From contig JBILDU010000016.1 of the NCBI GenBank assembly GCA_044352465.1, forward strand, positions 1-37,703: DNA of 37,703 nt, in the 5' to 3' direction. The stretch comes from Bdellovibrionota bacterium. Lineage in GTDB: Bacteria > Bdellovibrionota_C > UBA2361. Positions 4,089 through 37,703 of the stretch are shown piece by piece. Made by a program: the position numbers and the translations under genes. Positions within the stretch are counted from its first letter, which is position 1; each line of letters starts with the position of its first letter. Under the pieces are notes generated by a model, which was not told the DNA's origin, did not search any database, and was given only the letters and a program-made list of their open reading frames with translations.

Positions 4089-5276
4089 ATGAAGCAGAAA
4101 ATTCAAGACCTGATCCTGCTCCTGAAGAACGATAACCGGGCCAAGTTTGGCGCCGTCGGCATCGTACTTGCGGCGGTGTTCCTGCTGCAATCACCGGAGC
4201 CACGCCGTCGCCCCACCCCCCGCATGAACCAACAGATGGATACGATTGGGGATGCCGGGATGATGTCGCGCGACGAAGCGTACAACGACATCGTGCAACG
4301 ATTCTCAATGGATGTCGAGCAGATCAAGACCCAAACTCAACAGAACTCTGTGGAGATCAAAGAGGTCGTCAAGAACATGGCCGACAACGAGCAGCGTACC
4401 GCCGAGATCTTCAAAAAGATCCTGGAGCGCATGACGGAGAATCAGGCCGCTGCTGGCACAATCACTGCGGGCGGTGCGGTCGCGATGGATGTCAATCCAG
4501 TGGACGTCGGCGAGGCACCAGGCGCTATGACCGAGAGCCTCGCCACGAGTGAGGATTTCGCTCAGTTTGGTGATACTCAAGCGCCGGCCGTGGCACCACC
4601 ACCGCCGCCGCTCCCGTCCAAAGTGGCCTTCATCGGCGCGGGAGACTCGGTGCGAATCAAGCTCCTCGCTGGCGTCAATGCACCGACGGACGGAACCCCG
4701 TACCCGGTGGTTTTCAAACTCATTAGCGACGTCTACGGGCCAGATGGATCAGCTCTACCGCTCGGTGAGGCGCGACTGATCGCCGCTGCCCAAGGTTCAC
4801 TGACCGACTCCCGCGCGCTCTTCCGGATCACGACGCTCAATATCCGCTTGCCCGATGGACGCCGCAAGGTCTATCCGGTCGACGGCTGGATCGTCGGCGA
4901 GGACGGATTACGGGGGATGGAGGGCATTCTCCTTGACCCGATGGGTAAGGCGATCGCTGCAACCGGTATGGTCGCCGGGATCGGAGCGGTCGGCGAAGCC
5001 TTCGCCCAAGGAGAGACGAACACGAGCACCGGTGTTTTGGGGGATCAAAATACCGTGATCAACGGAGATCCATTCGTATTCGCTGGCGGCAAAGCGGTCG
5101 GTGGATTCGCCAAGGGCTGGAGCAAGATACTGGAGAAGCGGGTCGAGCAACTCGTGCCCCACGTCCAGGTGCTCTCGGGGCGTGAGGCCACCGCGGTCTT
5201 TGCCAAGTCGTTACCGGTCCACGACCTCCTCAACGCTCTTGATGAAGACGATGGCGGGATGAGCTCGCTTAACTAG
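4089..5276 (+). CDS. traB: TraB/VirB10-like core complex protein
   Basis: N-terminal TM, coiled coil, Pro-rich linker PPPPPLP, then LLAGVNAP...PVVF...GWIVGEDGLRGMEG and VPHVQVLSGREATAVF, typical of the TraB/TrbI domain. Confidence 0.9.
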   Translation: MKQKIQDLILLLKNDNRAKFGAVGIVLAAVFLLQSPEPRRRPTPRMNQQMDTIGDAGMMSRDEAYNDIVQRFSMDVEQIKTQTQQNSVEIKEVVKNMADNEQRTAEIFKKILERMTENQAAAGTITAGGAVAMDVNPVDVGEAPGAMTESLATSEDFAQFGDTQAPAVAPPPPPLPSKVAFIGAGDSVRIKLLAGVNAPTDGTPYPVVFKLISDVYGPDGSALPLGEARLIAAAQGSLTDSRALFRITTLNIRLPDGRRKVYPVDGWIVGEDGLRGMEGILLDPMGKAIAATGMVAGIGAVGEAFAQGETNTSTGVLGDQNTVINGDPFVFAGGKAVGGFAKGWSKILEKRVEQLVPHVQVLSGREATAVFAKSLPVHDLLNALDEDDGGMSSLN

Positions 5277-5792: not shown

Positions 5793-6284
5793 ATGGAGAC
5801 TCGTATGAACGGCCTTCGACTGAGCATCTTCGGTATGATCGGCGTCCTCCTTGGGGCGTGCTCGACCACCGATGTCCCGCAATGGAAGCCGCACAAAGAG
5901 ACCCGCACCTACAGCGTGGCTCCGCGACAACTCCCCCCTGAGCCGACCTACAGTCGACTCCGCTGGGTACGCCCCCCCGAGGTCCTTCCCCATGCGCCGC
6001 GCGGTGGAGACGAAGCTCCGGCGATCGTGCCGGTGATGCATCTGGAGCTTAAGGATACAACCCTTGAGGAGGCCGCCCGCATTTTAGCGTCAGCTGCACA
6101 GTACTCCAGCTACTGCTCGAGCCTCATCGCGAAACAGACGTTGACGCTCAGTCGGCTCGGCACCATTGATGAACTCGGCAGTGAGGTCGAGAAGGCGGCG
6201 CAGATTCGAGTGATTATCGATCACGCTGGTCGACAGGTGAAGTTTTTAGCAAACCATGCGCCTGCGGCGCCGCGTTTGTACTAG
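5793..6284 (+). CDS. Lipoprotein with N0/STN-like (DotD-like) domain
   Basis: Lipobox LLGAC; LELKDTTLEEAARILASAAQY...LTLSRLGTIDELGSEV pattern resembles secretin N0/STN/DotD domains. Start may be the second Met. Confidence 0.6.
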   Translation: METRMNGLRLSIFGMIGVLLGACSTTDVPQWKPHKETRTYSVAPRQLPPEPTYSRLRWVRPPEVLPHAPRGGDEAPAIVPVMHLELKDTTLEEAARILASAAQYSSYCSSLIAKQTLTLSRLGTIDELGSEVEKAAQIRVIIDHAGRQVKFLANHAPAAPRLY

Positions 6285-13271: not shown

Positions 13272-15371
13272 GTGGTCCCCGAACTCCCGCCGGAACAAAA
13301 CGGTCCCCGTTCAAACGATCCCCGTAACGGCGGCGACGGTGCTCAAGGGGACGACTATGGCGCCTTCGGATCCACCCAAGGGCTGAGAAACTCGTGGGCC
13401 GCGAAGCTGGAATACGCCATCCAGCATCTCCAACGCCCTCTATTACTGAGGCTCATCCGTGAAATCGAGGAGGACCCTACCCTTTCGGTTGAGGTCCGCG
13501 CTCACATCGCAAACTCCCCGATTAACATCGTCCTACGGGGAGAGCCACTCTCAGCTCCACCACTCTTTGCCTATCTTTATAGGGAGAGCATCCCGGCAGC
13601 GGGGATTATCTCGAGCTTTATTAAGATCGGCGCCGATATCCGCAAAGCTGACTCACTGGAGACCCATCTTCTCGACCTCGTCATTCCCCGCTCGGGGAAC
13701 CCCGAACTCATCCACGAATTAGTCGAGCGGGGGGCGCGGGCTCCACGCCAAGGGGCGCAGTTCTCGATCGATGTCGTTACTGAGGAGTCTCCGAACCGCA
13801 CCTATCGATTCCCTAATCAACGTATTGATCCGGAACCGCGCCGTGAGACCGTCGACTTCCGTGGATTGGTGAAGGCATTAAACCGGCTGTATCAAGATGC
13901 GCCGGAGGATACTCAGCACGAATGTCGTAAGTTGATTCAAGCGACTGGTCGCGTCTACGACGGCTATGTGTATCTGCGTGCCACTGAGGAGGCCACGCTC
14001 CTTTCACCCGAACTACGGGCGCGGACCGCGGTGGGGCGGCGTTTTGTCGAGCTCACGGCCTTGATCTTCGGAGGGAGACATCCGCGGGAGATCGTCGGGA
14101 CGATTCAACGGATCGAAGGCCTGATGGATAACCACCCGGATATCCACCACTGGCATCAAAGCGAACCGGAGCTGGCGCTCCTCGTGGGACATCCGGGGAT
14201 GAATTATACCGATCCGAACGACATCGAGGTCGGCAACGCGACCACCCGCTCCCTCACCTCGATCAATCGAATCTACTTCAAAGGGATTCACTCCCTTGAA
14301 CCGAACGCCCGGGAAACGATCGGCAAACTTGGCTTCCTCACCCACGCATTCAAATTTTTTCGCTACGATACCGAGCAGCGCAGAGTCTGGCTCGGTGACG
14401 GTGGTGCGATCGTTCCGGGCTCCAGTATGCTCGAGCAATTTGGTTTTGAGCGGGTTTCCCCGCGCCCGACCGACCGCCGGGTCGACGAGCCAACCCGCGA
14501 CCATCTCGGCACCGGGTTTGTCATGAAGCCTTTTAGCCCAGTTCTGACATCAGGATGGCTCGCCCGCGAACGGGATCTCGATCCAAGTTTCTATATCGAG
14601 TTTCGCCGCGCCTATATTCTCGCGAGCCATCCAGGCCTGGGAACCCTGCTGATACGTAACTCTTCGCCGCTTTTCGGTCGCGATACGTTCCCCCACTTCG
14701 CCTACTGGGGCCCAACGCCGGTCTCGCGTCGATATCCTCCGCTGGATCTCCTTCATCCCGAACATATGATCGCCTCAGGCCGACTACGTCCTGTTCTCAG
14801 CGCAGAGGGTAAGGACTATCGAACAATCTCCCTTGGGTTAATCCAATCGAAAAGCGTCACCCAACTCGTGAACGGCGTCATCGCCGTCAAAGATGGTCTC
14901 CGGCGCTGGAAGTTCGATACCGATGCGGACAGCGCCTGGGAAATCGATCCTCAAACTGGAGTGCGGTATCCGAGCGGCGCAGGGATGCACCTCTCGGAGG
15001 GCTTCCCTGCCCTCGTTCAGCACCTCGTTGAGCGCTACCGTTTCATCGATGCCGCTGAGTCGAGTGGGTATGATGTCGCCGAACAACTGCCCGACCTGGC
15101 CTTCTACCACCCGTACCTTCCTGCTTGGCATCCCCACACGTACACGCTCACGCCGGTCCCCAATGGCCCTGAGACGACAAGGAGTCAGCTCACGCTCTCC
15201 CGCGAGGTACTCGATGGTCTCAAAAAACTCGCCGATCGGAACCTCAGGCGCTCCGATGTAGCTACGTTAGAGCGACTCGGCGTCATGCAATTTTTAATGG
15301 CGGGCGCCCAAGCCCAAGCGGAGCTGGTGATGGTTCCCCCCGCGGCAAAATCGCTGGGTGCGCAGGAGTGA
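13272..15371 (+). CDS. Large hypothetical protein with degenerate ankyrin-like repeats near the N-terminus
   Basis: 699-aa ORF; IISSFIKIGADIRKADSLETHLLDLVIPRSGNPELIHELVERGA resembles the ankyrin consensus; disordered N-terminus, no signal peptide. Confidence 0.75.
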   Translation: MVPELPPEQNGPRSNDPRNGGDGAQGDDYGAFGSTQGLRNSWAAKLEYAIQHLQRPLLLRLIREIEEDPTLSVEVRAHIANSPINIVLRGEPLSAPPLFAYLYRESIPAAGIISSFIKIGADIRKADSLETHLLDLVIPRSGNPELIHELVERGARAPRQGAQFSIDVVTEESPNRTYRFPNQRIDPEPRRETVDFRGLVKALNRLYQDAPEDTQHECRKLIQATGRVYDGYVYLRATEEATLLSPELRARTAVGRRFVELTALIFGGRHPREIVGTIQRIEGLMDNHPDIHHWHQSEPELALLVGHPGMNYTDPNDIEVGNATTRSLTSINRIYFKGIHSLEPNARETIGKLGFLTHAFKFFRYDTEQRRVWLGDGGAIVPGSSMLEQFGFERVSPRPTDRRVDEPTRDHLGTGFVMKPFSPVLTSGWLARERDLDPSFYIEFRRAYILASHPGLGTLLIRNSSPLFGRDTFPHFAYWGPTPVSRRYPPLDLLHPEHMIASGRLRPVLSAEGKDYRTISLGLIQSKSVTQLVNGVIAVKDGLRRWKFDTDADSAWEIDPQTGVRYPSGAGMHLSEGFPALVQHLVERYRFIDAAESSGYDVAEQLPDLAFYHPYLPAWHPHTYTLTPVPNGPETTRSQLTLSREVLDGLKKLADRNLRRSDVATLERLGVMQFLMAGAQAQAELVMVPPAAKSLGAQE

Positions 15372-15477
15372 TGCGCAAAGAATGTAGGGGGGGTAAAAAC
15401 ATCCGCTATGGAGAGAGCATCTTGCGGCGAAATCGAAACTGTCTGTTGTTGACGGAACCTTTATGACGATTGTACTC

Positions 15478-15648
15478 ATGCCGACACCCACGACCGAACC
15501 GAAGCCGGCTCCGACGACTCCGCAAACCGATCCGCCCGCGACGGTGCCTTACCCCCAGCCGGAGCCCCGTCCGTGCCCGAAGCCGGGGAGTACACCGAGC
15601 GAAACGTGTATCTTCAAAGATTTGGTGTTACCGGATCGCCGATCCTAA
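15478..15648 (+). CDS. Possible small Pro/Thr-rich peptide
   Basis: MPTPTTEPKPAPTTPQTDPPATVPYPQPEPRPCPKPG...; fills the gap between two convergent genes; no clear RBS. Confidence 0.4.
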   Translation: MPTPTTEPKPAPTTPQTDPPATVPYPQPEPRPCPKPGSTPSETCIFKDLVLPDRRS

Positions 15649-26354: not shown

Positions 26355-27506
26355 ATGAGCGAATCCTCCATCACCAAGTTGTTTGACGACGTCAAATCCG
26401 GACGGCTGGCGATCCTGCAAGACGATGTTCAAGGGGTCGCTCGCGCGATCCTCGTAGCGCCGGCGCACGAAATCTCCGCGGATGAGGTCAACCGACTCAT
26501 CACCCTCTCCGGCGGAATCGTCTTTGCTGGACTGGCCCCCGAGCGGGCGGCGGCTTTTCTTCTCGATCCGATGGGACGCCCCCGCGTATCGGCCACCGAA
26601 CAGCCATGCAACTTCAGTGGACCTAATTTTTGTATCTCGGTTGAAGCACGGGAGGGAGTCACCACCGGAATCAGCGCCGCCGATCGCGCGGTGACGCTGC
26701 GTATACTGGGTGCTCCCGAGATACATCCCCGGAAACTAGTCCAACCCGGCCATATCTTCCCGGTAGAGGTTCGGGCAGGCGGGGTCTTGGTCAAAAACGC
26801 GCTCCCAGAAGGCGCAGTTGACATCGTATCACTCGCTGGCTTTACCGGCGCTGCCGCTTTTATCGATCTTCTCGACGATGCGGGGAACCTCATCCTCGGT
26901 GATAAGGTGGACGACTTTGCCCACAAGCATTCATTACCGCTTTTTCGCCTGAGCGAGCTCACCCGGTACAGGCTCGAAACAGAGAAGGTAGTCTACCGCG
27001 TTGCCGAGGCCAAACTCCCCACCAAACTCGCGGGGGAACTTCGCTCGATTATCTACAAATCAACTATCCACGGCGGGGAACACCTCGCCCTGGTGAAGGG
27101 GGATATCGATCCGACGGTCCCCCTCCTGACCAGAGTCCAACCTGAAAACACCTTCGCAGACGTATTCGGAGGAGACTCTCCTGCTTCGCGGGAGCAGCTC
27201 CAGCGCTGCTTGGAGGAGATCGGTCGGCGGGGCCACGGCGTCATCGTATACTTGCGCCGACCGTCCTCGGGAGAGCTCCACCACCAAATCGACACGGCCA
27301 CTCAGCAGAGCCCGCCCGGAAAAGCGCTCATGCGGGAGTATGGACTCGGTGCCCAGATCTTACGCGACCTCGGGGCTCGCAAGATCGAGCTCCTGACGGG
27401 CACTAAAAAAGATCTCGTGGGGCTTCAATCTTTCGGACTCGAGATCGTCTCGCAGACCCCTCTTCCCAGCTCAACTCCGCCCCCATCTTCGGAGCAACGC
27501 CCATGA
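26355..27506 (+). CDS. RibBA-like fusion (DHBP synthase + GTP cyclohydrolase II folds) with degenerate catalytic motifs
   Basis: FCISVEAREGVTTGISAADRAVT, PGHIFP, EHLALVKG, REYGLGAQILRDLG, FGLEIV; canonical ENEGD, GHTE and Zn-Cys motifs absent. Confidence 0.92.
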   Translation: MSESSITKLFDDVKSGRLAILQDDVQGVARAILVAPAHEISADEVNRLITLSGGIVFAGLAPERAAAFLLDPMGRPRVSATEQPCNFSGPNFCISVEAREGVTTGISAADRAVTLRILGAPEIHPRKLVQPGHIFPVEVRAGGVLVKNALPEGAVDIVSLAGFTGAAAFIDLLDDAGNLILGDKVDDFAHKHSLPLFRLSELTRYRLETEKVVYRVAEAKLPTKLAGELRSIIYKSTIHGGEHLALVKGDIDPTVPLLTRVQPENTFADVFGGDSPASREQLQRCLEEIGRRGHGVIVYLRRPSSGELHHQIDTATQQSPPGKALMREYGLGAQILRDLGARKIELLTGTKKDLVGLQSFGLEIVSQTPLPSSTPPPSSEQRP

Positions 27507-28771
27507 CCACCATTACGTTCGCCGATGTCGTTCACCAGTCGATCGCTTTCTCAACGGCAGTTCCCTCACAAGCGCTCGCCCTAGAGATTCTCGACAATCG
27601 GTGGTTTCAACGGCTGCGCGACATCAGCCAGACAGCGAATACCCGCCTCGTGTACATGTTCTCAGAGCACTCCCGCTTCGGGCACTGTTTGGGTGTCGCT
27701 TACCTCGCTGAGAGTCTCCTGGAGAAGCTCTCGCACCAGCGTCCACGCGAGGTGGCTGAATATCGCGCTGCGATCGTCGCGGCGGCGATGCTGCACGACA
27801 TCGGCCATCTGGCGCCGGGGTCGCATACCGCGTTTAAGACCTGGTTCCCCGGCCAACCGGATGAACACGAGTTGATGGCGAGCAAGATCCTCCGCGGGGA
27901 TGCCGAACTCCTCAGCATCCTCAGAAAGTACGGGGCCGATCTCCCGGCAGCAGTTGAGGCGATCCTGCGCGAGGATCCAGCTCTCCCCCCGTGGACCTGG
28001 CAGATTATTTCAGGTGGTGGCTGGAACGTTGACCGGGGGAACTGGTGCATGGTCGACAGCATCCTGGCCGGGGTGAGTTACGGCGAATACAACATCCCAG
28101 CGCTTACCGATTCGATCGTCATCACTGATTCGGGACACCTTGCGGTGCGGGAGAATCGCCTCGATGCGATGATGCACTTCGCCGTCTCTCGTCATGCGAT
28201 GTATCGACAGATCTATCAACACCGCGCCATCTTGGCGGTCGACACCCTCAACGTGGCCATCGCGCGGCGTGCCCGCGATCTCGCAGAGGAGATTCCGTTC
28301 GCCGATGAAACGATGCGGGCGGTTCTCGCGGCGAAGACCCCTGACGCACTGACACCGGCGATCGTCTTCGCCATGAGAGAGTCTTGGTGGAAATATCATC
28401 TCTCACGTTGGCGAAGCGGTACCGATGCGATCCTCGCTGACCTGTCGGCCCGGTTGGTTGACCGACAGCTTTTTAAAACGGTACGGGTGCGCGACGATGA
28501 GAATCCCGCCGAGTTACGGGAACGGGCCGCGCAGGCGGTAGTGGCGGCCGGGTACGACCCGCGTTACTACCTCGGGGAGCTCTCCACTGAGGACATGCAC
28601 GCGGGCGACTCCCGTCAGTCGATGCTGATCCTGAAAGATGATGGATTCATTAAACCCCTTACTGAGGCTGACCCTCTTTTTAAGGCGATGGTCTCCTCGT
28701 CCCATGCCGGAGATAAAACCTGGCTCTCACTGCCGAAAGAGGCGAAGGAGCGGCTCGGTCGCGAGAGATAA
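27503..28771 (+). CDS. HD-domain phosphohydrolase (YdhJ/SAMHD1-like dNTPase family)
   Basis: FQRLRDISQ, HSRFGHCLGV, MLHDIGH, HE, VDR, RHAMYRQIYQH; ATGA overlap with the ribBA-like gene. Confidence 0.92.
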   Translation: MTTITFADVVHQSIAFSTAVPSQALALEILDNRWFQRLRDISQTANTRLVYMFSEHSRFGHCLGVAYLAESLLEKLSHQRPREVAEYRAAIVAAAMLHDIGHLAPGSHTAFKTWFPGQPDEHELMASKILRGDAELLSILRKYGADLPAAVEAILREDPALPPWTWQIISGGGWNVDRGNWCMVDSILAGVSYGEYNIPALTDSIVITDSGHLAVRENRLDAMMHFAVSRHAMYRQIYQHRAILAVDTLNVAIARRARDLAEEIPFADETMRAVLAAKTPDALTPAIVFAMRESWWKYHLSRWRSGTDAILADLSARLVDRQLFKTVRVRDDENPAELRERAAQAVVAAGYDPRYYLGELSTEDMHAGDSRQSMLILKDDGFIKPLTEADPLFKAMVSSSHAGDKTWLSLPKEAKERLGRER

Positions 28772-28926
28772 GCAACTTGTTGGGTTTGTTCCAGCCCCTT
28801 GAGGGGATCTCAGGAGCACATTGCCCGGAGTTGGCCCCATAACCGTCTATAGAGGCTCGTGTGAGGCGCGATGGGCGTTCCGTGACGGGCTCTCGAGCAT
28901 AAGGGGGGAACTTCTACGGAGGCCTT

Positions 28927-29373
28927 ATGTCTTTTTGGGGAAACGATGATTCACGGGCACGCGAGCTAGCCCAGCGCAAAGAAGAGGAACGCCGCCGAGC
29001 AGCCCAAGCTGAGAAGGCGCGTGCGGCAAAGGCCGCCGCTGCTCGAGCCGCCGCGAAAATCGAAGCACAAAGAAAGAAAGAGCTCAAAGCGGAACGCGAC
29101 GCTGAGGATAAGAAGCTCCGCGACGAGCTCGTCGAGAAGATGCTCAACGGGGGCAAGGACAAACGCGGGCCGTCAACTTTCCCGACCCTTAACAGAGGTT
29201 TCGGGGGTGATCGAGCCCAGCCAACAAACCAGCAACAATGCTTCCAACACCTGAAGAATCAACCCCACAACCAACCGAATAGTGCTGCACGCGAGGAGGC
29301 GAGCTCAAAGGAGGGCAATGGCGCCACCCCTCGCGGGGGTACCGGCCTCCCACCGCTCCGCCGCCCGTTCTAG
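28927..29373 (+). CDS. Charged coiled-coil/low-complexity hypothetical protein
   Basis: GGAGG RBS; Ala/Lys/Glu/Arg helix, then Gln/Pro-rich tail. Confidence 0.75.
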   Translation: MSFWGNDDSRARELAQRKEEERRRAAQAEKARAAKAAAARAAAKIEAQRKKELKAERDAEDKKLRDELVEKMLNGGKDKRGPSTFPTLNRGFGGDRAQPTNQQQCFQHLKNQPHNQPNSAAREEASSKEGNGATPRGGTGLPPLRRPF

Positions 29374-31090: not shown

Positions 31091-31401
31091 GCATACTTAT
31101 CTATGAGAAGCTCAAGAAACGTTTCCACGCTTTCTCTAAAGAGCCTCATGTTATTCGGAGATGATTGCACCCATGATTCACAACCGGCGATTAATTTCCC
31201 TAACTCCATTGCCCTGTTCCTGGATTCGAGCGCTGAATCAGGATCACTCGGTGGTACCGTTATCAGGGGCAAAAGCTCACTTAGTGCCGCCCTAATAGTG
31301 TTAGCTGAACAGGTAGAGGTATCAGCCTCAACTCGATTCGGCGCCGCAACGTGGAGGGAGAGTACGAGCAGGGCGATGCCTAGAAGCTTTCTTAGACGCA
31401 T
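31087..31401 (-). CDS. Small secreted helical protein (two Cys)
   Basis: Likely start MRLRKLLGIALLVLSLHVAAPNRVEA signal peptide; first of a three-gene operon. Confidence 0.7.
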   Translation of the reverse strand: MRLRKLLGIALLVLSLHVAAPNRVEADTSTCSANTIRAALSELLPLITVPPSDPDSALESRNRAMELGKLIAGCESWVQSSPNNMRLFRESVETFLELLIDKYA

Positions 31402-31697
31402 AGACTCTCTTACCGAAGTTCCCTTACTGCTTCCTATCAACGGTGGTCGACGGCGCTCCCCATTGGGAGTTCCAGACGAAAGGGTATCCAAATTGGATTC
31501 ATAAGGTCTCCCCGTTTTGGTCCCAAGACCTTGATCGTCCAAAAAAAAAACGTTAGGAAAACCCGCTAAAGTGAGGCCAATATACGAAGATCTCGTAGGG
31601 TCAGGTGACCAAGGGTGCGTTACCGATACGGAGGCCGTGTCGCGCTAAGCTGGCGCCAGTATCGGAAATATTTCTCAATGGGTTACGAAGACCGTGT

Positions 31698-31870
31698 TGC
31701 CCTCTGTACCGGGGCTACTCGGGGCAGATAGAGGTATTTGGTGTGGGATGATGGAGCGCCCCTGGGCCAGCACCGTGCGGTATGGATAACCCCGGCGCGG
31801 GGTGGAATCGGATGGTCGTGTCCCGCTAGTACTGGTGCCAGGGGAGCAGTAGCCCCGGTACAGGGGAAAA
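31698..31870 (+). repeat. 173-bp inverted-repeat element (MITE/REP-like), copy 1
   Basis: TGCCCTCTGTACCGGGGCTACT...AGTAGCCCCGGTACAGGGGAAAA; 16-bp perfect subterminal inverted repeat; near-identical to four other copies. Confidence 0.95.
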
Positions 31871-31912
31871 TCCTGATGGTTTTATCGGTCGTTTCGTGAG
31901 GGCGATACTAGA

Positions 31913-32938
31913 TTAAAGTATCCGTACGCTCTTCCGCTCTAAGCTCCCGAGCAGAATCAGTCTCTCCCGGAGATTTTCCTTCTCCCGCTCGAGCTGGAGT
32001 AGTGCGGCTGGGCTCAGCTCTATCTTCCCCGCGATCGCGTTCTGAAGCGCCTCCCGAAACGGCTGGTTGTCGAGGTTCTCAGCGACGGTAAGAAATACGC
32101 CGCACCCCCCAGCCGCCATCGCACCGATAAAGTCCTTCCACCGGTCACCTCCAGAGATCCATCGATCGTGGGGGGAGAGTCCGAGCTTCGCTTTGGCGCG
32201 GATAAATCCATCCGGTTCAGGCTTTCCCTTCCCCGATGGCAGGTCGGAGGAATAGACCCGATATTCGATCGGAAGGTATCCGTCGAGTCCCAGCGCGGAG
32301 ATCTCAAGGTCGGCGCTCTCCTTCGGAGACCCGGTATAGATCGAGACCTTACCCCCCATCTTTATCGAGAGCTCCTTTACGAACTCGATCGCTCCGGCAA
32401 GCTCCTTAAATTCCCCGGAATCGATAAGATGCTTAAAGTGACCCCGGCGCAGATCTTTGTACACTCCGATGAATTCGTCATCGCTTATCGAGCGGCATCG
32501 CTCTGGGAGAGCCCCCTCCTCGCTCAGGATCGAGCGCACGATAAGGGACATCTTCGTATCGGCGTTTCCGAGCGCCTCTTTATTGATTCGCCGAACGATA
32601 GACATCGCGAGCCGAGCATCGGAAATCCCGGTCGATTCTCGGTAAAGCTCCTGCGCCGCGAGCATAATACACCGCACGATCGGGCGCTCACTATTGAGAA
32701 GAAACCCATCGAGGTCGAGGATAGCGCCCCGGTACTCGCTGGTGTTGACCTCGAACGGGGTCGTATGGATCTGGTAGTTTCCCGAATTCAGGATAGTGCG
32801 GTGAATCTTTACCTGGATATCGAGTTGGGTAGGCTGCGGTATACGGGCCGGTCCAAGTGCACCGAAATCGGGATCGAGATTGCTGTACGAAGCTGATTCG
32901 TCACGTGATTTTGTATGACTGTTGTCGAGATTAGCCAT
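31913..32938 (-). CDS. HAD-superfamily phosphatase (CbbY/beta-PGM-like) with N-terminal extension
   Basis: ILDLDGFLLNSE (motif I), YTGS (II), GKPEPD (III), GGDRWKD (IV); GGGGGAG RBS. Confidence 0.9.
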   Translation of the reverse strand: MANLDNSHTKSRDESASYSNLDPDFGALGPARIPQPTQLDIQVKIHRTILNSGNYQIHTTPFEVNTSEYRGAILDLDGFLLNSERPIVRCIMLAAQELYRESTGISDARLAMSIVRRINKEALGNADTKMSLIVRSILSEEGALPERCRSISDDEFIGVYKDLRRGHFKHLIDSGEFKELAGAIEFVKELSIKMGGKVSIYTGSPKESADLEISALGLDGYLPIEYRVYSSDLPSGKGKPEPDGFIRAKAKLGLSPHDRWISGGDRWKDFIGAMAAGGCGVFLTVAENLDNQPFREALQNAIAGKIELSPAALLQLEREKENLRERLILLGSLERKSVRIL

Positions 32939-33092
32939 CGTCTCCCCCCTCGCGAGCTGTGAACCACTGTGTCTGAGGTATTCCCCCTGTCTTCTGAAGA
33001 TCGCTCCAGGTATTACCCCCTACCCCACTCTGTTATGGTGTCGAACCGAAGAGCATTACCTCTGCCGCACCGATAATCCTCATAAAAAAGGC

Positions 33093-33283
33093 TGCCCTCT
33101 GTACCGGGGCTGCCCTCTGTACCGGGGCTACTCAGGGCAGATAGAGGTATTTGGTGTGGGGTGATGGAGCGCCCCTGGGCCAGCACCGTGCGGTATGGAT
33201 AACCCCGGCGCGGGGTGGAATCGGATGGTCGTGTCCCGCTAGTCCTGGTGCCAGGGGAGCAGTAGCCCCGGTACAGGGGAAAA
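33093..33283 (+). repeat. 173-bp element copy 2 (33111-33283) preceded by an 18-bp duplicate of its left end (33093-33110)
   Basis: TGCCCTCTGTACCGGGGC-TGCCCTCTGTACCGGGGCTACT...GGGGAAAA. Confidence 0.95.
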
Positions 33284-33288
33284 TCGAA

Positions 33289-33603
33289 ATGAATCAAATG
33301 GAAGGCGATCGCCGCACTCCTCGAATACCCGAAGAACGATTCAAGATCTCTTTTCAAGAGGCGCTTAGGCCAATAGACACAGACAAGATGCGGGAAGGTC
33401 TCCAACTGATGCTCGACGGAATGGGCGATATTCATCATGCCTGTGGTGGTGATGGAAAGTTCGAGATTGGGGAGATTAAATCGACGCCACAAGGACATCA
33501 CTCTATAGAGGTGATATTCCGGGGGCACTTAGGAAATATGCCAGCTCAGGAAATCTCAGAAGCAGTGCAGAAAGTATTTGAGGGTTGGAGTCGAAGAAAT
33601 TAG
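33289..33603 (+). CDS. Integron cassette gene, probably 5'-truncated by element copy 2
   Basis: Stop lies 5 bp before an attC; the frame is open back into the element; no cassette GTTRRRY start upstream. Confidence 0.6.
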   Translation: MNQMEGDRRTPRIPEERFKISFQEALRPIDTDKMREGLQLMLDGMGDIHHACGGDGKFEIGEIKSTPQGHHSIEVIFRGHLGNMPAQEISEAVQKVFEGWSRRN

Positions 33604-33608
33604 TTGCG

Positions 33609-33707
33609 GTATAACAATCAATTCCTGCCGAGAACCGGCGCGGCGATCGCTAGCGAACATGCGAATTGATTAACAGCGCCCGTTCCGGCAGAATTTAACC
33701 GTTATCC
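33609..33707 (+). mobile_element. Integron attC site 1
   Basis: GTATAAC...GTTATCC ends; arms AATTCCTGCCGAGAACCGGCGC / GCGCCCGTTCCGGCAGAATT pair with two extra-helical bases. Confidence 0.85.
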
Positions 33708-33717
33708 TCTCGATATT

Positions 33718-34023
33718 TTAGGCAGCTCGCTTTTGCTTCTTAGTCGGCGCGAACCGAAGCTGTATTCCCACTGCTTCGAGAATTGACGAAAGGCTTGAAA
33801 GCTTAGGATTCCCTTTCTTGGAGAGACTACGGTAAAGATTTTCTCGGTTAAGTTCAGTGGTTCGCGATAGGCCACCTATTCCACCGCGTGCCTCGACAAC
33901 ATCTCGAAGGCCAAGCAGGAACACTTCTTCAGAGTCCTCCAAGCATGCATTCAAATACTCCGCTGCTTCGCGCGGATCTTTAAGTTGTTTCAGCAGTTCG
34001 TCGTGATAACTTCTTGTTGGCAT
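33718..34023 (-). CDS. Addiction-module antidote (HigA-like HTH antitoxin, HI1420 type)
   Basis: LKDPREAAEYLNACLE...LRDVVEARGG...LNRENLYRSLSKKGNPKLSSL; GGAG RBS; overlaps the toxin 3' end. Confidence 0.93.
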   Translation of the reverse strand: MPTRSYHDELLKQLKDPREAAEYLNACLEDSEEVFLLGLRDVVEARGGIGGLSRTTELNRENLYRSLSKKGNPKLSSLSSILEAVGIQLRFAPTKKQKRAA

Positions 34024-34336
34024 TTTTATGCTCCTCCCAAAGTAGCTTTGCTTTTGTAATATCTCGGCTTTGAGTGCTCTTATCGCCACCACATAGCAGC
34101 ACTACTAAAAATTCACCTTGTTTGCCGAAATACACCCGGTATCCCGGCCCAAAAATGATTCGAAGTTCAAACACACCTCCACCAACGCCCTTGCAATCAC
34201 CAAAATTGCCAAGCTCGATTCGGTTTAGTCGGGCTCTGATAATAGCGCGTGCTTTAATATCCCGAAGGTCTGATAGCCATTCGGCGAACGGACTTTTTCC
34301 AGCCCGGCTTTCATATATTACTATCGTCCACTTCAC
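33980..34336 (-). CDS. RelE/ParE-family addiction-module killer toxin (HigB-like, HI1419 type)
   Basis: PFAEWLSDLRD...GNFGDCKGVGGGVFELRIIFGPGYRVYF...LLCGGDKSTQSRDI; GTG 34336 favoured as a leaderless start (TTG 34342 alternative). Confidence 0.93.
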   Translation of the reverse strand: MKWTIVIYESRAGKSPFAEWLSDLRDIKARAIIRARLNRIELGNFGDCKGVGGGVFELRIIFGPGYRVYFGKQGEFLVVLLCGGDKSTQSRDITKAKLLWEEHKNANKKLSRRTAETT

Positions 34337-34342
34337 ATTCAA

Positions 34343-34371
34343 ACTGTAGCTTTAAAGCTACGATATGTCAA
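34343..34371 (-). promoter_or_regulatory. TA promoter with palindromic operator
   Basis: Minus strand TTGACA-17 bp-TACAGT; perfect palindrome GTAGCTTTAAAGCTAC (34346-34361) overlaps the spacer and -10. Confidence 0.85.
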
Positions 34372-34396
34372 TTGAATAAATGGTGGCATTCTGAGA

Positions 34397-34452
34397 GGAT
34401 AACAACAAAATGGTGCCGAGCGCTTTGCGCCGGCTTATTTATGCCGTTAGCC
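34397..34452 (+). mobile_element. Integron attC site 2
   Basis: GGATAAC...GTTAGCC, 56 bp, arms GCCGAGCGC/GCGCCGGC; GAGAGGATAAC (34393-34403) is the exact reverse complement of GTTATCCTCTC (33701-33711), defining the TA cassette. Confidence 0.88.
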
Positions 34453-34485
34453 CGCAGGACTCATACATGGAAACCAAGACATACC

Positions 34486-35076
34486 TGACCTTGCCCCCTA
34501 ATTTGTACCAGCGATAAGTTGGCTTCTCCGATCAATTTCTCTCTTCAACCTCAGTTGTTCAGCCTCCCTGGGGGGTATACCCCCCAGGGAGGAATGCGGT
34601 CGTAGCCCATTGTATTCGTGCCGCCACTTTTCAATTTCCCGGGCAGCGTGGGCGAGACTGACGAACCAGCGGTCATTGAGACATTCCTGCCGAAACTTAT
34701 CGTTAAATGATTCGACGAATCCGTTCTCCATCGGGCGTCCCGGAGTAGTGAAGTGAAGTAGTACACCCCTCCGTTTTGCCCAAGCCCCAAGAGCAGCACC
34801 GCGGAACTCAAGCCCGTTACCTATCCGGAGTACTCGCGGAAGTCCTCGTGTTACAGTGAGGCGCTCCAGGACCCGAGTCACCCGCTCCCCGGGTATAGAG
34901 TGAGCTACCTCGATAGCGGGAGACACTCGGGAGGCATCATCGACGATAGTAAGGCACCGAAATGGACGACCATCTGTACACGCATCGTGTACAAAGTCCA
35001 TCGACCAGACATCGTTCGGCTTCTCTGGCTGCGGCAGCGGCACAGGACAGACAAGGAGCCGCTTCTTGCGTCTTTT
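34486..35076 (-). mobile_element. Truncated IS3-family element (right end plus C-terminal OrfB integrase core, 34498-35076)
   Basis: Terminal TGACCTTGCCCCC; KRRKKR...PNDVWSMDFVHD...IVDD...GNGLEF...PGRPMENGFVESFNDKFRQECLN...YN..RPHSSLG. The second catalytic Asp (DNG) reads GNG; the 5' part is cut at element copy 3. Confidence 0.92.
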
Positions 35077-35249
35077 TGCCCTCTGTACCGGGGCTACTCG
35101 GGGGCGATAGAGGTATTTGGTGTGGGATGATGGAGCGCCCCTGGGCCAGCACCGTGCGGTATGGATAGCCCCAGCGCGGGGTGGAATCGGATGGTCGTGT
35201 CCCGCTAGTACTGGTGCCAGGGGAGCAGTAGCCCCGGTACAGGGGAAAA
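35077..35249 (+). repeat. 173-bp element copy 3
   Basis: Same ends and length; a few internal substitutions (GGGGGCGATA, GATAGCCCCAGCG). Confidence 0.95.
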
Positions 35250-35278
35250 GGTCGTCCTCATACGTTCAGCGCCTATCA

Positions 35279-36268
35279 CTAGTAACTTTCGGGCGTAGTC
35301 TGTCCGCGATCTCGTAGTATATCATTACAGGCTGGGAGAATCCTGGGCCATCCGAGCTGTTCACACACTGCTGCACATGTTTCCTCCATAAAGGCGCAGA
35401 GAATATCAATCAGATCCAAAATGAGGGCAAAAATCCTCCCTCCGGGGGTAAGTGAGAGAATCAAGCTTATGATATCAAACAAGCACTGGTAGCCGTTGCA
35501 CTGGTGCGGCATTTCTATGCACGTAACGCAGTTGTTCCAAAAGTCTATTATCTGAATTATTCCGAGCCATTTTAGAACACGCTTGCCCCAACTGCTCTTA
35601 AGGAACCAGTTCCAGTAATCCTTCGTCTTCTCCCAAAGCCCCGGGGCCGGGCCTGCGACAGCGGATTGTATTGCCCCACCTGACCGGAGGCTATTCCCAC
35701 TGATGTTCCCGAGTCCCGCAGTCGCGACCGCAAGTGCCACCTTAACACAGCTAGCTTCTGCTTCGATCACCGCTGCTGATAAGCTTCCGCGCGACGGCCT
35801 ACCGCCGGTCAGTGCATAGACGTCCACCGTTAGAAAATGCACGACGTCGTGATTTTTCATTTCAGGCGGAGTGGTGCTGTGGAATCTGGTGGTGTTCTTC
35901 GTTAGCCATTCTCCCCAACGCTCTGAGCTCCAGTCTTCCTTCAGGCCTCTTTCAAATGGCACTGCTGCAAAATCTAAAAAATTAGCGACTACCCCACTTC
36001 GGGATTCGCCATTGACAGTCACGGCGCCGGATAGGTTAAAAGCCACCACTCCGCTAGAATAGACTGTGCAAGAAGCCTTGAGTGACTCAAGCTCCACGTT
36101 GGGTTTGCCTGCATGCTCTCCGACAGTACTCGGTTCGACTTGCGCTAAGGCACCGCGCGGGCTCACTATTAATGGGGTCGCAATCAGTCCGGCAAGCGCA
36201 AGCCCATGCAAGCTCGCCAAAATAGCCTCGCAGAAGATCTTTCGGACACTTTGGCTAGTCGATTCCAT
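35279..36268 (-). CDS. Secreted hypothetical protein with a Trp/Cys-rich hydrophobic C-terminal domain
   Basis: GGAGGGGAG RBS; signal peptide (…GALA-Q); GLWEKTKDYWNWFLKSSWGKRVLKWLG, then eight Cys among hydrophobic helices. Confidence 0.82.
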   Translation of the reverse strand: MESTSQSVRKIFCEAILASLHGLALAGLIATPLIVSPRGALAQVEPSTVGEHAGKPNVELESLKASCTVYSSGVVAFNLSGAVTVNGESRSGVVANFLDFAAVPFERGLKEDWSSERWGEWLTKNTTRFHSTTPPEMKNHDVVHFLTVDVYALTGGRPSRGSLSAAVIEAEASCVKVALAVATAGLGNISGNSLRSGGAIQSAVAGPAPGLWEKTKDYWNWFLKSSWGKRVLKWLGIIQIIDFWNNCVTCIEMPHQCNGYQCLFDIISLILSLTPGGRIFALILDLIDILCAFMEETCAAVCEQLGWPRILPACNDILRDRGQTTPESY

Positions 36269-36685
36269 GCTCCCCTCCCTCGCGTTTCAACTACATCCTC
36301 TAATTACTCGTAGTTGACGGCGGAATCGGCAAGATACTTGAGGAGTAGGCAATATTTCACCACTAAAGCTATGTTATTCGACGGATTTCCTTGGAGATTT
36401 ATCAGCGGCGCTGCCTCTACTGCTTCGTCCCCCTGTCTTGCCGTGGTCTGAGGTTTAAACCTTTTTAATAGGATGAGTGTACATCAGACCTTGGGTGTTT
36501 CAGGGGGTGTAGGGCCCTACGATGGAGTTTTGGCTCCATACACAGCCTGCTTTTGGGCCGATCGCTGCTCAAGAAGTGCGAGGCGCTTAAGTTTAGTGAC
36601 GCTCCTGACGAACTAATTTTTTGAACTGGGAACGAGGGGGGAATTTACCCCCGCTCGATTTTGCTTAAAAAAGGGGAGCTTGTGC

Positions 36686-37396
36686 ATGGTCCAAGCGTTT
36701 TCTTCGGTAAATCTCACTAGCTGCGCCCGTCGATACCTTGTGCTATGTTATGTCGCCACATTCGGCATGGCTCAACCTGCTTTGGCCTCGCCCACCCCAT
36801 CGAATACGGGCTTAACCGAGTCCTCATTGTCTCAAGAGACTGAGTCTCCGCAATATTGCCCGGGGGGATTTCCGGTTGACCCTAGCACTACTATCGAGTC
36901 CCTTGGTTATCAAATTGAATTAGGGTCTCCCAGTGCGTGGAGCCGTGATCGCTCAAATCCACCAGGCTATGGCAGATTCGTCTACGAACAGTCTTTCTTT
37001 GCCCCCGGCTACAATGATCAAGGCGGACGCGAATATGAACCATACGACGCTCCGTGGTTCAATGCAGCGGCCGACAGTACCATCAAGAATATCTGTAAGT
37101 GGGTAAAGAATGTATTTCGTTGTTTCAGAAAGGAGGAACCGCCCGTCATTACCCCTCCACCGACGAAGACTCCCCGTCAGATCGAAAGGGAGCGGGTGGC
37201 AGCTTGCAAAGCCGTTGGGACAGGAGCTTTAGCGAACTGTATAAGTTGTGCGTGCGCTAAGTGTGAGACCTATGCAGAGACATGGTACAACATCTGCATG
37301 GGTAATTGCATAATGACTGATGAGAATTTCAACTGCGTTCAAGACTGTCTCGCTGACAGAGCGAATGCCACTGCTGGCCTTGACCGTGCGCCCTAG
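36686..37396 (+). CDS. Secreted Cys-rich hypothetical protein
   Basis: AGGGGAG RBS; signal peptide (…PALA-S); IKNICKWVKNVFRCFRK; C-terminal CISCACAKC...CMGNC...CVQDC. Confidence 0.8.
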   Translation: MVQAFSSVNLTSCARRYLVLCYVATFGMAQPALASPTPSNTGLTESSLSQETESPQYCPGGFPVDPSTTIESLGYQIELGSPSAWSRDRSNPPGYGRFVYEQSFFAPGYNDQGGREYEPYDAPWFNAAADSTIKNICKWVKNVFRCFRKEEPPVITPPPTKTPRQIERERVAACKAVGTGALANCISCACAKCETYAETWYNICMGNCIMTDENFNCVQDCLADRANATAGLDRAP

Positions 37397-37457
37397 ATTG
37401 GTTTCAGTAATCGATGGCATCCCTCGAACTGGGAACCGCTTTATAATAGCCCTATGT

Positions 37458-37630
37458 TGCCCTCTGTACCGGGGCTACTCGGGGCAGATAGAGGTATTTG
37501 GTGTGGGATGATGGAGCGCCCCTGGGCCAGCACCGTGCGGTATGGGTAGCCCCGGCGCGGGGTGGAATCGGATGGTCGTGTCCCGCTAGTCCTGGTGCCA
37601 GGGGAGCAGTAGCCCCGGTACAGGGGAAAA
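37458..37630 (+). repeat. 173-bp element copy 4, flanked by a 13-bp direct repeat
   Basis: AATAGCCCTATGT at 37445-37457 and 37631-37643. Confidence 0.95.
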
Positions 37631-37643
37631 AATAGCCCTATGT

Positions 37644-37703
37644 TGCCCTCTGTACCGGGGCTACTCGGGGCAGATAGAGGTATTTGGTGTGGAATGATGG
37701 GGC
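37644..37703 (+). repeat. 173-bp element copy 5 (partial, runs off window)
   Basis: Same left end; two substitutions vs copy 4 (GGAATGATGGGGC vs GGGATGATGGAGC). Confidence 0.9.

Follow-up and report, generated by a model that had tools for sequence, protein, structure and literature searches.

The last ~6 kb of contig JBILDU010000016.1 of an uncultured Bdellovibrionota bacterium (assembly GCA_044352465.1) carry an array of five co-oriented 174-nt repeats with unrelated genes between them; the whole contig, 37,703 nt in length, is referred to below as the window. The repeats are very probably non-autonomous hairpin doublets of the REPIN/BIME-like (REPtron/TIRtron-type) class, the ends of which are cognate to a HUH Y1 enzyme of the RAYT/TIRYT type encoded elsewhere in the same genome. 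The evidence consists of the pairing of repeat and enzyme, the conserved layout of motif and gene in related genomes, the catalytic motifs and the predicted fold of the enzyme, the absence of target-site duplications (TSDs), the near-identity of the copies and their low-GC accessory setting. The original prediction, made from the window only, had taken the array for a system that builds a repeat-cargo array from heterologous DNA, for which no support was found.

The repeat array

The window represents the entire contig C101 of a metagenome-assembled genome (G000) of 3.13 Mb in 170 contigs, with 57% GC and 95% completeness. A repeat search of the window returned four copies of a 183-nt family, 91-100% identical to the reference copy and all on the + strand, as well as a fifth, partial match at 37631-37703 on the same strand, with start-to-start spacings of 1413, 1966, 2381 and 186 nt. 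Compared in register, all five copies are 174 nt long without any indel (the fifth being read from C166:50-223) and 96-98% alike. Thirteen sites vary among the five, and most of the substitutions are private to one copy, resulting in a star-like pattern. Thus, the predicted five co-oriented repeats with small differences are real, each being 174 nt instead of 173 bp. The gaps between successive copies are 1239, 1792, 2207 and 12 nt, in line with the ~1.2, ~1.8 and ~2.2 kb given earlier, whereas the last gap had been put at 13 bp. Copies 4 and 5 stand in tandem, with a unit of 186 nt that comprises the element plus a 12-nt flank.

Contig C166 most likely continues the window, because the final 73 nt of the window recur without change at C166:38-110 and C166 has the whole fifth copy (50-223). 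The latter is followed there by a small open reading frame (ORF), pieces of other repeats and the genes alaS, lpxK, waaA and msbA. All five full-length 174-nt copies of the 3.13-Mb genome are located inside ~6.1 kb; if copies were placed uniformly, the probability of such clustering would be, by our own arithmetic, of the order of 1e-10. Chance is excluded as the source of the repeats and of their terminal motif.

At full length the 174-nt element had no match in the genomes of 40 relatives, where the only matches, of up to 46 nt and to the terminal motif region, were found in two genomes. A scan of public metagenomes with a 19-nt interior word, which is too short a word, gave no second copy of the element among the matches listed, but only chance matches of ~20 nt.

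Ends, folding and flanks of the element

Each copy begins with TTGCCCTCTGTACCGGGGCTACT and finishes with AGTAGCCCCGGTACAGGGGAAAA, which are an inverted pair of ~23-nt units forming inverted termini of ~20 nt. The unit is tagged with GTAG, carries the core motif CTGTACCGGGGCTACT, and its two occurrences enclose a self-complementary interior of ~130 nt. Across relatives the motif reads CTGTA[C/G]NNGGGCTACT, with T-rich tails and a short GTAG...CTAC palindrome. The element has no coding capacity, and its single strand is predicted to fold as a single long hairpin (-91 kcal/mol, z -2.7 for the + strand; -77.5 kcal/mol, z -3.3 for the - strand). No Rfam family was matched at gathering thresholds across the whole window; at E<=1, two chance-level matches were found over 31400-37703, none of them on a repeat. 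Genes of tRNA or tmRNA were not found in the window.

The left terminal unit is partly repeated as a 'stutter' at three independent copies (33092-33109, C137:~4263-4274 and C7:~46480-46500), of which those on C137 and C7 sit at truncated or related copies. These stutters may be scars of imprecise end processing.

When flanks were compared among the copies, no left flank matched any right flank except at copy 4, where the 12 nt standing on both sides belong to the 186-nt tandem unit. Four of the five copies consequently have no TSD, in agreement with the non-matching flanks noticed originally, and the proposed pairing of flanks between distant copies gave no case of exchange. Transposition by Y1 HUH enzymes, such as those of the IS200/IS605 family, is not expected to leave a TSD.

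A RAYT-like transposase enclosed by the same motif

It had been claimed that the window holds no transposase for the repeats, and that a HUH or RAYT gene bounded by CTGTACCGGGGCTACT should be sought. The first holds for the window, and the search elsewhere in the genome was positive: C3:15533-16510 is an intact ORF of 325 aa matching Pfam Y1_Tnp, enclosed by nine forward motifs upstream (15238-15483) and two reverse motifs downstream (16671 and 16703). The repeats therefore agree with the earlier notion of a mobile, non-autonomous element without its own enzyme in the window. A paralogue, C109:1278-2267, is 82% identical to the C3 protein and has on its flanks arrays of a motif variant in which GTGCAG replaces GTACAG, and on C146 three forward motif copies adjoin a fragment of the same transposase gene. 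In total, RAYT-like proteins gave 10 matches in this genome, the two 82%-identical paralogues and more distant ones. Divergent Y1-type paralogues of 318-347 aa, 19-28% identical to the C3 protein, are encoded at C164:789-1745, C144:25244-26182 and C45:14541-15491, and presumably have repeat families of their own.

For the C3 and C109 genes alike, the Pfam Y1_Tnp score is close to the cut-off, and the best NCBIfam model is REP_Tyr_transpos (REP-associated tyrosine transposase), the match to which extends from profile position 4 to 144 of 146. Among 26 aligned sequences H61, H63, W101, Y105, Y122 and P127 do not vary, and N126 is conserved in at least 90%. The H61-V-H63 HuH motif is present in all 26 homologues, and the tyrosine motif is YLYANP (Y---NP). 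According to Quentin et al. 2018 (PMC6006769), HuH together with Y---NP marks class 2 TnpA_Y1, the RAYT class.

An AlphaFold model based on the alignment of 26 homologues (pLDDT 85) found its best structural match in the Protein Data Bank (PDB) in 4ER8_A, the RAYT of E. coli with a REP hairpin (E 6e-6, TM 0.68, target-normalised), followed by TnpA of IS608 and ISDra2. By this model the 325-aa protein is predicted to have the Y1 HUH transposase fold. A search of the PDB by sequence only with the transposase gave nothing relevant (best E 1.2). In the ESM Atlas the matches belong to clusters of 295-334-aa proteins; 27 of 30 lie in clusters carrying Y1_Tnp (33-58% of the members in the three shown), and these clusters are commonest in Myxococcota and Acidobacteriota.

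Conservation of the layout in relatives

The transposase family occurs in the genomes of 36 of the 40 same-order relatives and in 86 stretches of a species-representative collection, which belong to freshwater Bdellovibrionota and 'delta-proteobacterial' metagenome-assembled genomes. The arrangement of motif and gene was counted at 80 homologous loci of other genomes, the forward motif being sought up to 350 nt upstream and testable loci serving as denominators. Among loci with at least 60% identity to the C3 protein (55 of 80), the forward motif was present upstream in 35 of 48 and the reverse motif downstream in 33 of 49, the opposite orientations occurring there in none and one, respectively; both motifs, inverted, were found in 25 of 43. 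At 50-60% identity (8 loci) the forward motif stood upstream in 2/8 (reverse there 0), the reverse motif downstream in 1/4 (forward there 0) and both in 1/4. Below 50% (17 loci) the corresponding values were 0/16 upstream, 1/16 downstream and 0/15 for both. Because forward motif, gene and inverted motif are conserved across related genomes, the layout is, as judged from sequence, that of a REPtron, or of a TIRtron in the terms of Di Nocera (PMC3733652).

One relative (G030) has 33 matches of RAYT-like proteins and 117 of the motif, mostly in arrays at contig ends. This pattern looks like a burst of an insertion sequence (IS) rather than a single-copy domesticated gene.

The same conservation bears on the question of whether the repeats might be a classical miniature inverted-repeat transposable element derived from an IS with a DDE transposase, the Y1 gene being merely a frequent target or neighbour. 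Such an origin is highly improbable, although the ~20-nt terminal inverted repeats, the lack of coding capacity and the size of 174 nt are typical of these elements. Forward motif, Y1 gene and reverse motif keep their arrangement across genomes, there is no TSD (the 12-nt match at copy 4 being the tandem unit), and among the 61 motif sites of the genome no gene with a match to a DDE transposase lies between inverted motifs 1.2-1.8 kb apart. Motif pairs at this distance enclose the Y1 gene on C3 and C109; those on C26 and C153 mark in each case the ends of two separate doublets, one pair around an epimerase gene and the other around a tRNA-synthetase gene.

Sister elements and the question of gene capture

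The 16-nt core motif was found at 61 sites genome-wide with up to two mismatches, compared with none for the reversed control. Besides the 174-nt copies, these sites are located in sister doublets, in tandem direct arrays and as solo copies. A sister family of ~110 nt, having its left third in common with the 174-nt element, comprises six doublets on C7, C26, C116 (two) and C153 (two). On C116 the two co-oriented copies lie at a distance of 271 nt from each other; those on C153, likewise co-oriented, are 1.8 kb apart and located around a class II aminoacyl-tRNA synthetase gene. On C26, a degenerate copy of the 174-nt type and a 110-nt copy stand on either side of an epimerase gene.

A similar picture is seen in a genome of another family of the same order (G028), the contig C190 of which contains four homologous, co-oriented pieces of ~200 nt, 75-86% alike and each ending in the same reverse motif, as well as a minimal doublet of 44 nt and solo ends. 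These elements fill successive gaps among genes for RNHCP, polysaccharide deacetylase, subtilase, GNAT acetyltransferase and HEAT-repeat proteins. Members of the family therefore tend to settle co-oriented, in local groups, in intergenic gaps and regardless of the neighbouring genes.

Two further observations concern repeats in these genomes. In doublets of G028:C190 that have the termini in common (for instance 5957-6219, 27075-27510 and 28907-29205), the interior is built from a second small hairpin repeat in tandem (GACGG...CCTTTAGG...GACGG), so that by its sequence one repeat family lies inside another. In the genome under study the octamer GCGATCGC is found 281 times, ~six times the single-strand expectation, with 39 occurrences of the control GGGATCCC.

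It was possible that the array captures and shuffles genes, with co-oriented copies serving as composite ends and the HUH enzyme moving repeat-cargo-repeat units. Y1 HUH transposases of the IS200/IS605 type act on any DNA between a left and a right end, and composite mobilisation is mechanistically possible for Y1 HUH enzymes. Moreover, 1.2-2.2 kb of unrelated, accessory, low-GC DNA lie between the five co-oriented copies, an IS3-family transposase gene stops at one of them with its other half absent, and elements alternate with genes in a similar way on G028:C190. Capture is nevertheless unsupported and is considered very unlikely, because sister doublets bracket the tRNA-synthetase gene and co-oriented relatives fill intergenic gaps elsewhere. 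An epimerase gene is bracketed as well, and the genes interposed on G028:C190 are functionally varied and unrelated, which fits intergenic settling. No cargo segment was seen twice or in a second context, flanks are not exchanged, all segments are present in each of the four metagenome runs examined (see below), and attC-like sites inside the second cargo point to a different origin. Copies 4 and 5, with only 12 nt between them, represent tandem duplication of the element with its flank, and this also counts against capture.

A related but equally doubtful idea, to which only slight credence is given, is that doublets and HUH enzyme constitute a single-strand, integron-like cassette platform, in which any DNA that has one doublet's left end before it and the next doublet's right end after it could be excised as a single-stranded circle and reinserted. 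If so, this array and G028:C190 would be sites that collect and reshuffle accessory genes. The resemblance to integron attC arrays lies in co-oriented, hairpin-forming imperfect palindromes with conserved ends, segments of one to three genes between them, and the recognition as folded single strands that both would share. Unlike attC sites, which are conserved only at their ends, the 174-nt elements are near-identical throughout and have no RYYYAAC/GTTRRRY cores; no integrase was found in the genome, and two separate attC-like sites lie within the second cargo.

Assembly support

The junctions of the array were compared with Logan contigs from four public lake-metagenome runs. Every cargo segment is covered by contigs that reach into the repeats on both sides (31581-31724, 31843-33191, 33254-35135 and 35220-37474), extending 18-81 nt into the repeats with no differences. 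Cargo/repeat junctions are thus reproducible, each recurring in contigs from the four runs; no Logan contig runs across a complete 174-nt element.

A second, unrelated repeat family of ~130 nt lies to the left of copy 1, at 31492-31626 of the window, with other copies at C14:5543-5678 (88%), C86:1250-1371, C106:13830-13926 and C166:568-649 (inverted). Owing to this copy, the contigs of all four runs branch at ~31604-31610.

Loose contig ends contain additional copies with foreign flanks, and four of seven flank words are absent from the G000 assembly. Hence, the 174-nt family is not confined to this locus in the community. These further copies might also be taken to mean that the array has been wholly or partly mis-joined through a shared repeat and that its order is unreal, as might the nature of the assembly (a metagenome in 170 contigs, with the window ending inside a repeat), the lack of contigs crossing a complete repeat and the duplication of the flank of copy 4 at C166:1-37. 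An artefact of this kind has a very low probability. Apart from the recurrence of each junction, private substitutions tie the copies to their flanks, and two variants that only copy 2 carries are spanned by one contig (31925-33191). Unitigs shared between copies in run X1 are 1.6-2.8 times as deep as the unique flanks. In our reading this depth fits a repeat present two or three times, and not the collapse of a high-copy one.

Possible mechanism and points against it

The following course of events might explain the array. The 325-aa enzyme would mobilise the doublets in trans as single-stranded DNA, without TSD. One master sequence would have been amplified recently and locally, including the tandem duplication of element and flank seen in copies 4 and 5, and strand-specific insertion into single strands might have led to the co-orientation of the copies. 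The 5' part of the IS3 gene could have been lost by deletion between two co-oriented copies, or by the use of a distant end; adjacent deletion or inter-copy recombination, as originally proposed, is a plausible explanation for the cut gene. Local grouping would fit BIMEs, for which transposition followed by local amplification has been proposed (PMC3333891), and the tandem copies 4 and 5 fit the known tandem clusters of REPINs that include flanking sequence (PMC3116915).

Several observations weigh against the interpretation of the repeats as REPIN-like doublets. The truncation of IS3 demands an additional event, which was not observed. All five copies lie within 6 kb and local hopping would have to be assumed, whereas REPINs of P. 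fluorescens are spread randomly over extragenic space beyond ~400 bp (PMC3116915). With 61 sites the family is a low-copy one. The GTAG at the foot of the unit is present and conserved, yet the isolated motif forms a palindrome of only 4-6 bp (GTAG...CTAC/GTAC), far weaker than canonical REP hairpins. No consistent rule for the orientation of elements relative to the GC skew of their contigs was seen across 8 contigs. The model NF047646 of NCBIfam scores three of the proteins at 39.3, 38.2 and 47.1 bits, well below its curated cut-off of 80, and the putative activity of the protein family is deduced from motifs and the modelled fold. No empty site was found, so insertion was not observed and the exact boundaries of the element are unproven. 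In the five relatives' genomes tried, the HD-domain gene and alaS are located on separate short contigs and the ancestral arrangement was not recovered; a contig of the same genus stops ~570 nt past the HD gene. Since no contig crosses a whole repeat, only the original assembly vouches for the segment order and for the tandem junction of copies 4 and 5, and the duplicated left flank of copy 4 on C166 suggests that two haplotypes are present or that the assembly graph contains a loop.

Island and cargo genes

The array is located inside an island of ~9 kb, with conserved genes to one side and alaS to the other. GC content is 51-54% in the island, compared with 56-60% in the remainder of the contig, and nearly all of the 40 relatives lack the island's genes. 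The features are listed in Table 1.

Table 1. Elements of the array and genes between them, with positions in the window
Feature	Position	Strand	Remarks
Copy 1 of the 174-nt element	31697..31870	+	Inverted doublet, TTGCCCTCTGTACCGGGGCTACT ... AGTAGCCCCGGTACAGGGGAAAA; repeat search, register comparison
HAD-family hydrolase gene	31913..32938	-	Cargo 1, accessory; in 2/40 relatives' genomes at E<=1e-5
Stutter	33092..33109	+	18-nt partial duplication of the left end, immediately before copy 2
Copy 2 of the 174-nt element	33110..33283	+	
104-aa ORF	33289..33603	+	Between copy 2 and attC-like site A; no family match
attC-like imperfect palindrome A	33604..33700	-	- strand GGATAAC ... GTTATAC; fold z about -2.3
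Toxin-antitoxin pair	33718..34342	-	RelE/ParE-type toxin (TIGR02683), HI1420-type antidote (TIGR02684)
attC-like imperfect palindrome B	34380..34465	-	- strand GGCTAAC ... GTTATCC
IS3-family transposase gene, 3' part	34498..35075	-	Open frame up to copy 3; 5' part absent beyond
Copy 3 of the 174-nt element	35076..35249	+	Adjoins truncated IS3 gene
329-aa orphan protein	35279..36268	-	Signal-peptide-like N-terminus, Cys-rich C-terminus; 0/40 relatives
238-aa orphan protein	36680..37396	+	Signal-peptide-like N-terminus, Cys-rich C-terminus
Copy 4 of the 174-nt element	37457..37630	+	
Spacer, 12 nt	37631..37642	+	Identical to left flank of copy 4 (37445-37456)
Copy 5 of the 174-nt element	37643..37703	+	Cut by contig end; continues as C166:50-223

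The second cargo, between copies 2 and 3, had been described as an integron fragment, which is plausible from its sequence. The two attC-like palindromes (fold z -1.8 to -2.3) have complementary GGMTAAC and GTTATVC cores and enclose the toxin-antitoxin pair, which together with them could be a stray integron cassette. No match to the integron integrase (TIGR02249) was found in the 95%-complete genome.

Genes cut at the repeats were reported on both sides of this segment, as clear for IS3 and as probable for the cassette gene. For IS3 this is correct: the ORF of 181 aa matches profile positions 212-369 of 369 (158 positions) and its frame is open into copy 3. The cassette ORF adjoining copy 2 does not look cut, as the 104-aa ORF begins 5 nt past the copy and ends at the attC-like site. 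An ORF on the - strand that enters copy 2 has no family match, and by eye its translation is not protein-like. A remnant of ~100 nt resembling the 3' end of IS3 (C166:732-834, inverted and 83% identical to 34486-34579 of the window) adjoins alaS and is, judging by its similarity, a second decayed copy in the same island.

The two orphan proteins of the third cargo have no family match; their signal-peptide-like N-termini and Cys-rich C-termini were recognised by inspection. Altogether, the cargo would appear to be ordinary island content, not brought in by the repeats.

Comparison with known systems

Like the REPIN-RAYT and REP/BIME-TnpA_REP systems (REPtrons) of P. fluorescens SBW25 and E. 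coli (YafM/RayT, 4ER8), the family described here has GTAG-tagged inverted doublets predicted to form a hairpin, the same repeats inverted around a HUH/Y1 gene with HuH and Y---NP motifs, near-identical copies without TSD, and tandem clusters that include flank (PMC3116915, PMC3333891, PMC6006769). Two inverted units and a spacer with a predicted hairpin, as in REPINs, were found, and random extragenic dispersal was not. The differences are a protein of 325 aa with a C-terminal extension of ~180 aa and a score under the curated RAYT cut-off, the weak palindrome of the unit, tens of sites instead of hundreds, clustering on the kb scale, and multiple transposase copies in some relatives (such as G030). 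The spacer of ~130 nt also differs from the distances of 71 and 110 bp between next-neighbour REPs in SBW25 (PMC3116915).

TIRtrons and their TIRYT enzymes (Di Nocera et al. 2013, PMC3733652) likewise have a long RAYT-like gene, terminal inverted repeats in place of REP hairpins, and moderately abundant repeat families present as singles, dimers and clusters. Several relatives carry an NHVH-type HuH motif, as does TIRYT/TnpA_Y1 subclass 2.1, whose prevalent hosts are delta-proteobacteria in older taxonomy (PMC6006769). However, the published terminal inverted repeat motif GGGGWSAS (PMC3733652) was not found, GGGGCTAC standing here instead; WC and YLYANP replace W[EQ] and YIELNP or Y[IV]HLNP; and the protein of 325 aa exceeds the median length of 238 aa in subclass 2.1 (PMC6006769). 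The family is best filed as REPtron/TIRtron-type.

With IS200/IS605 elements (IS608, ISDra2) the family shares the predicted Y1 HUH fold. It may also share strand-specific 'peel and paste' transposition of single strands, which leaves no TSD and would account for the co-orientation of the copies. In contrast to these elements, which have two subterminal hairpins on the same strand, it has inverted ends, lacks tnpB and carries the tyrosine motif Y---NP instead of Y---Q.

In a literature search no top-ranking paper on RAYT, TnpAREP or REPIN mentioned Bdellovibrio, which does not prove absence. With the repeats described here, the range of REP/REPIN-type elements and of the HUH transposases that go with them very probably comes to include uncultured freshwater Bdellovibrionota, with a clean pairing of a 16-nt GTAG-tagged motif and a 325-aa RAYT-like protein, the paralogue of which has its own motif variant. 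Their co-oriented clustering around genes on the kb scale is atypical for REPINs. If the proposed local single-strand hopping is true, the array would be a natural case of elements spreading and promoting deletions within accessory islands. What was suspected to be a gene-capture system would thus belong to a known class of selfish or regulatory repeats.

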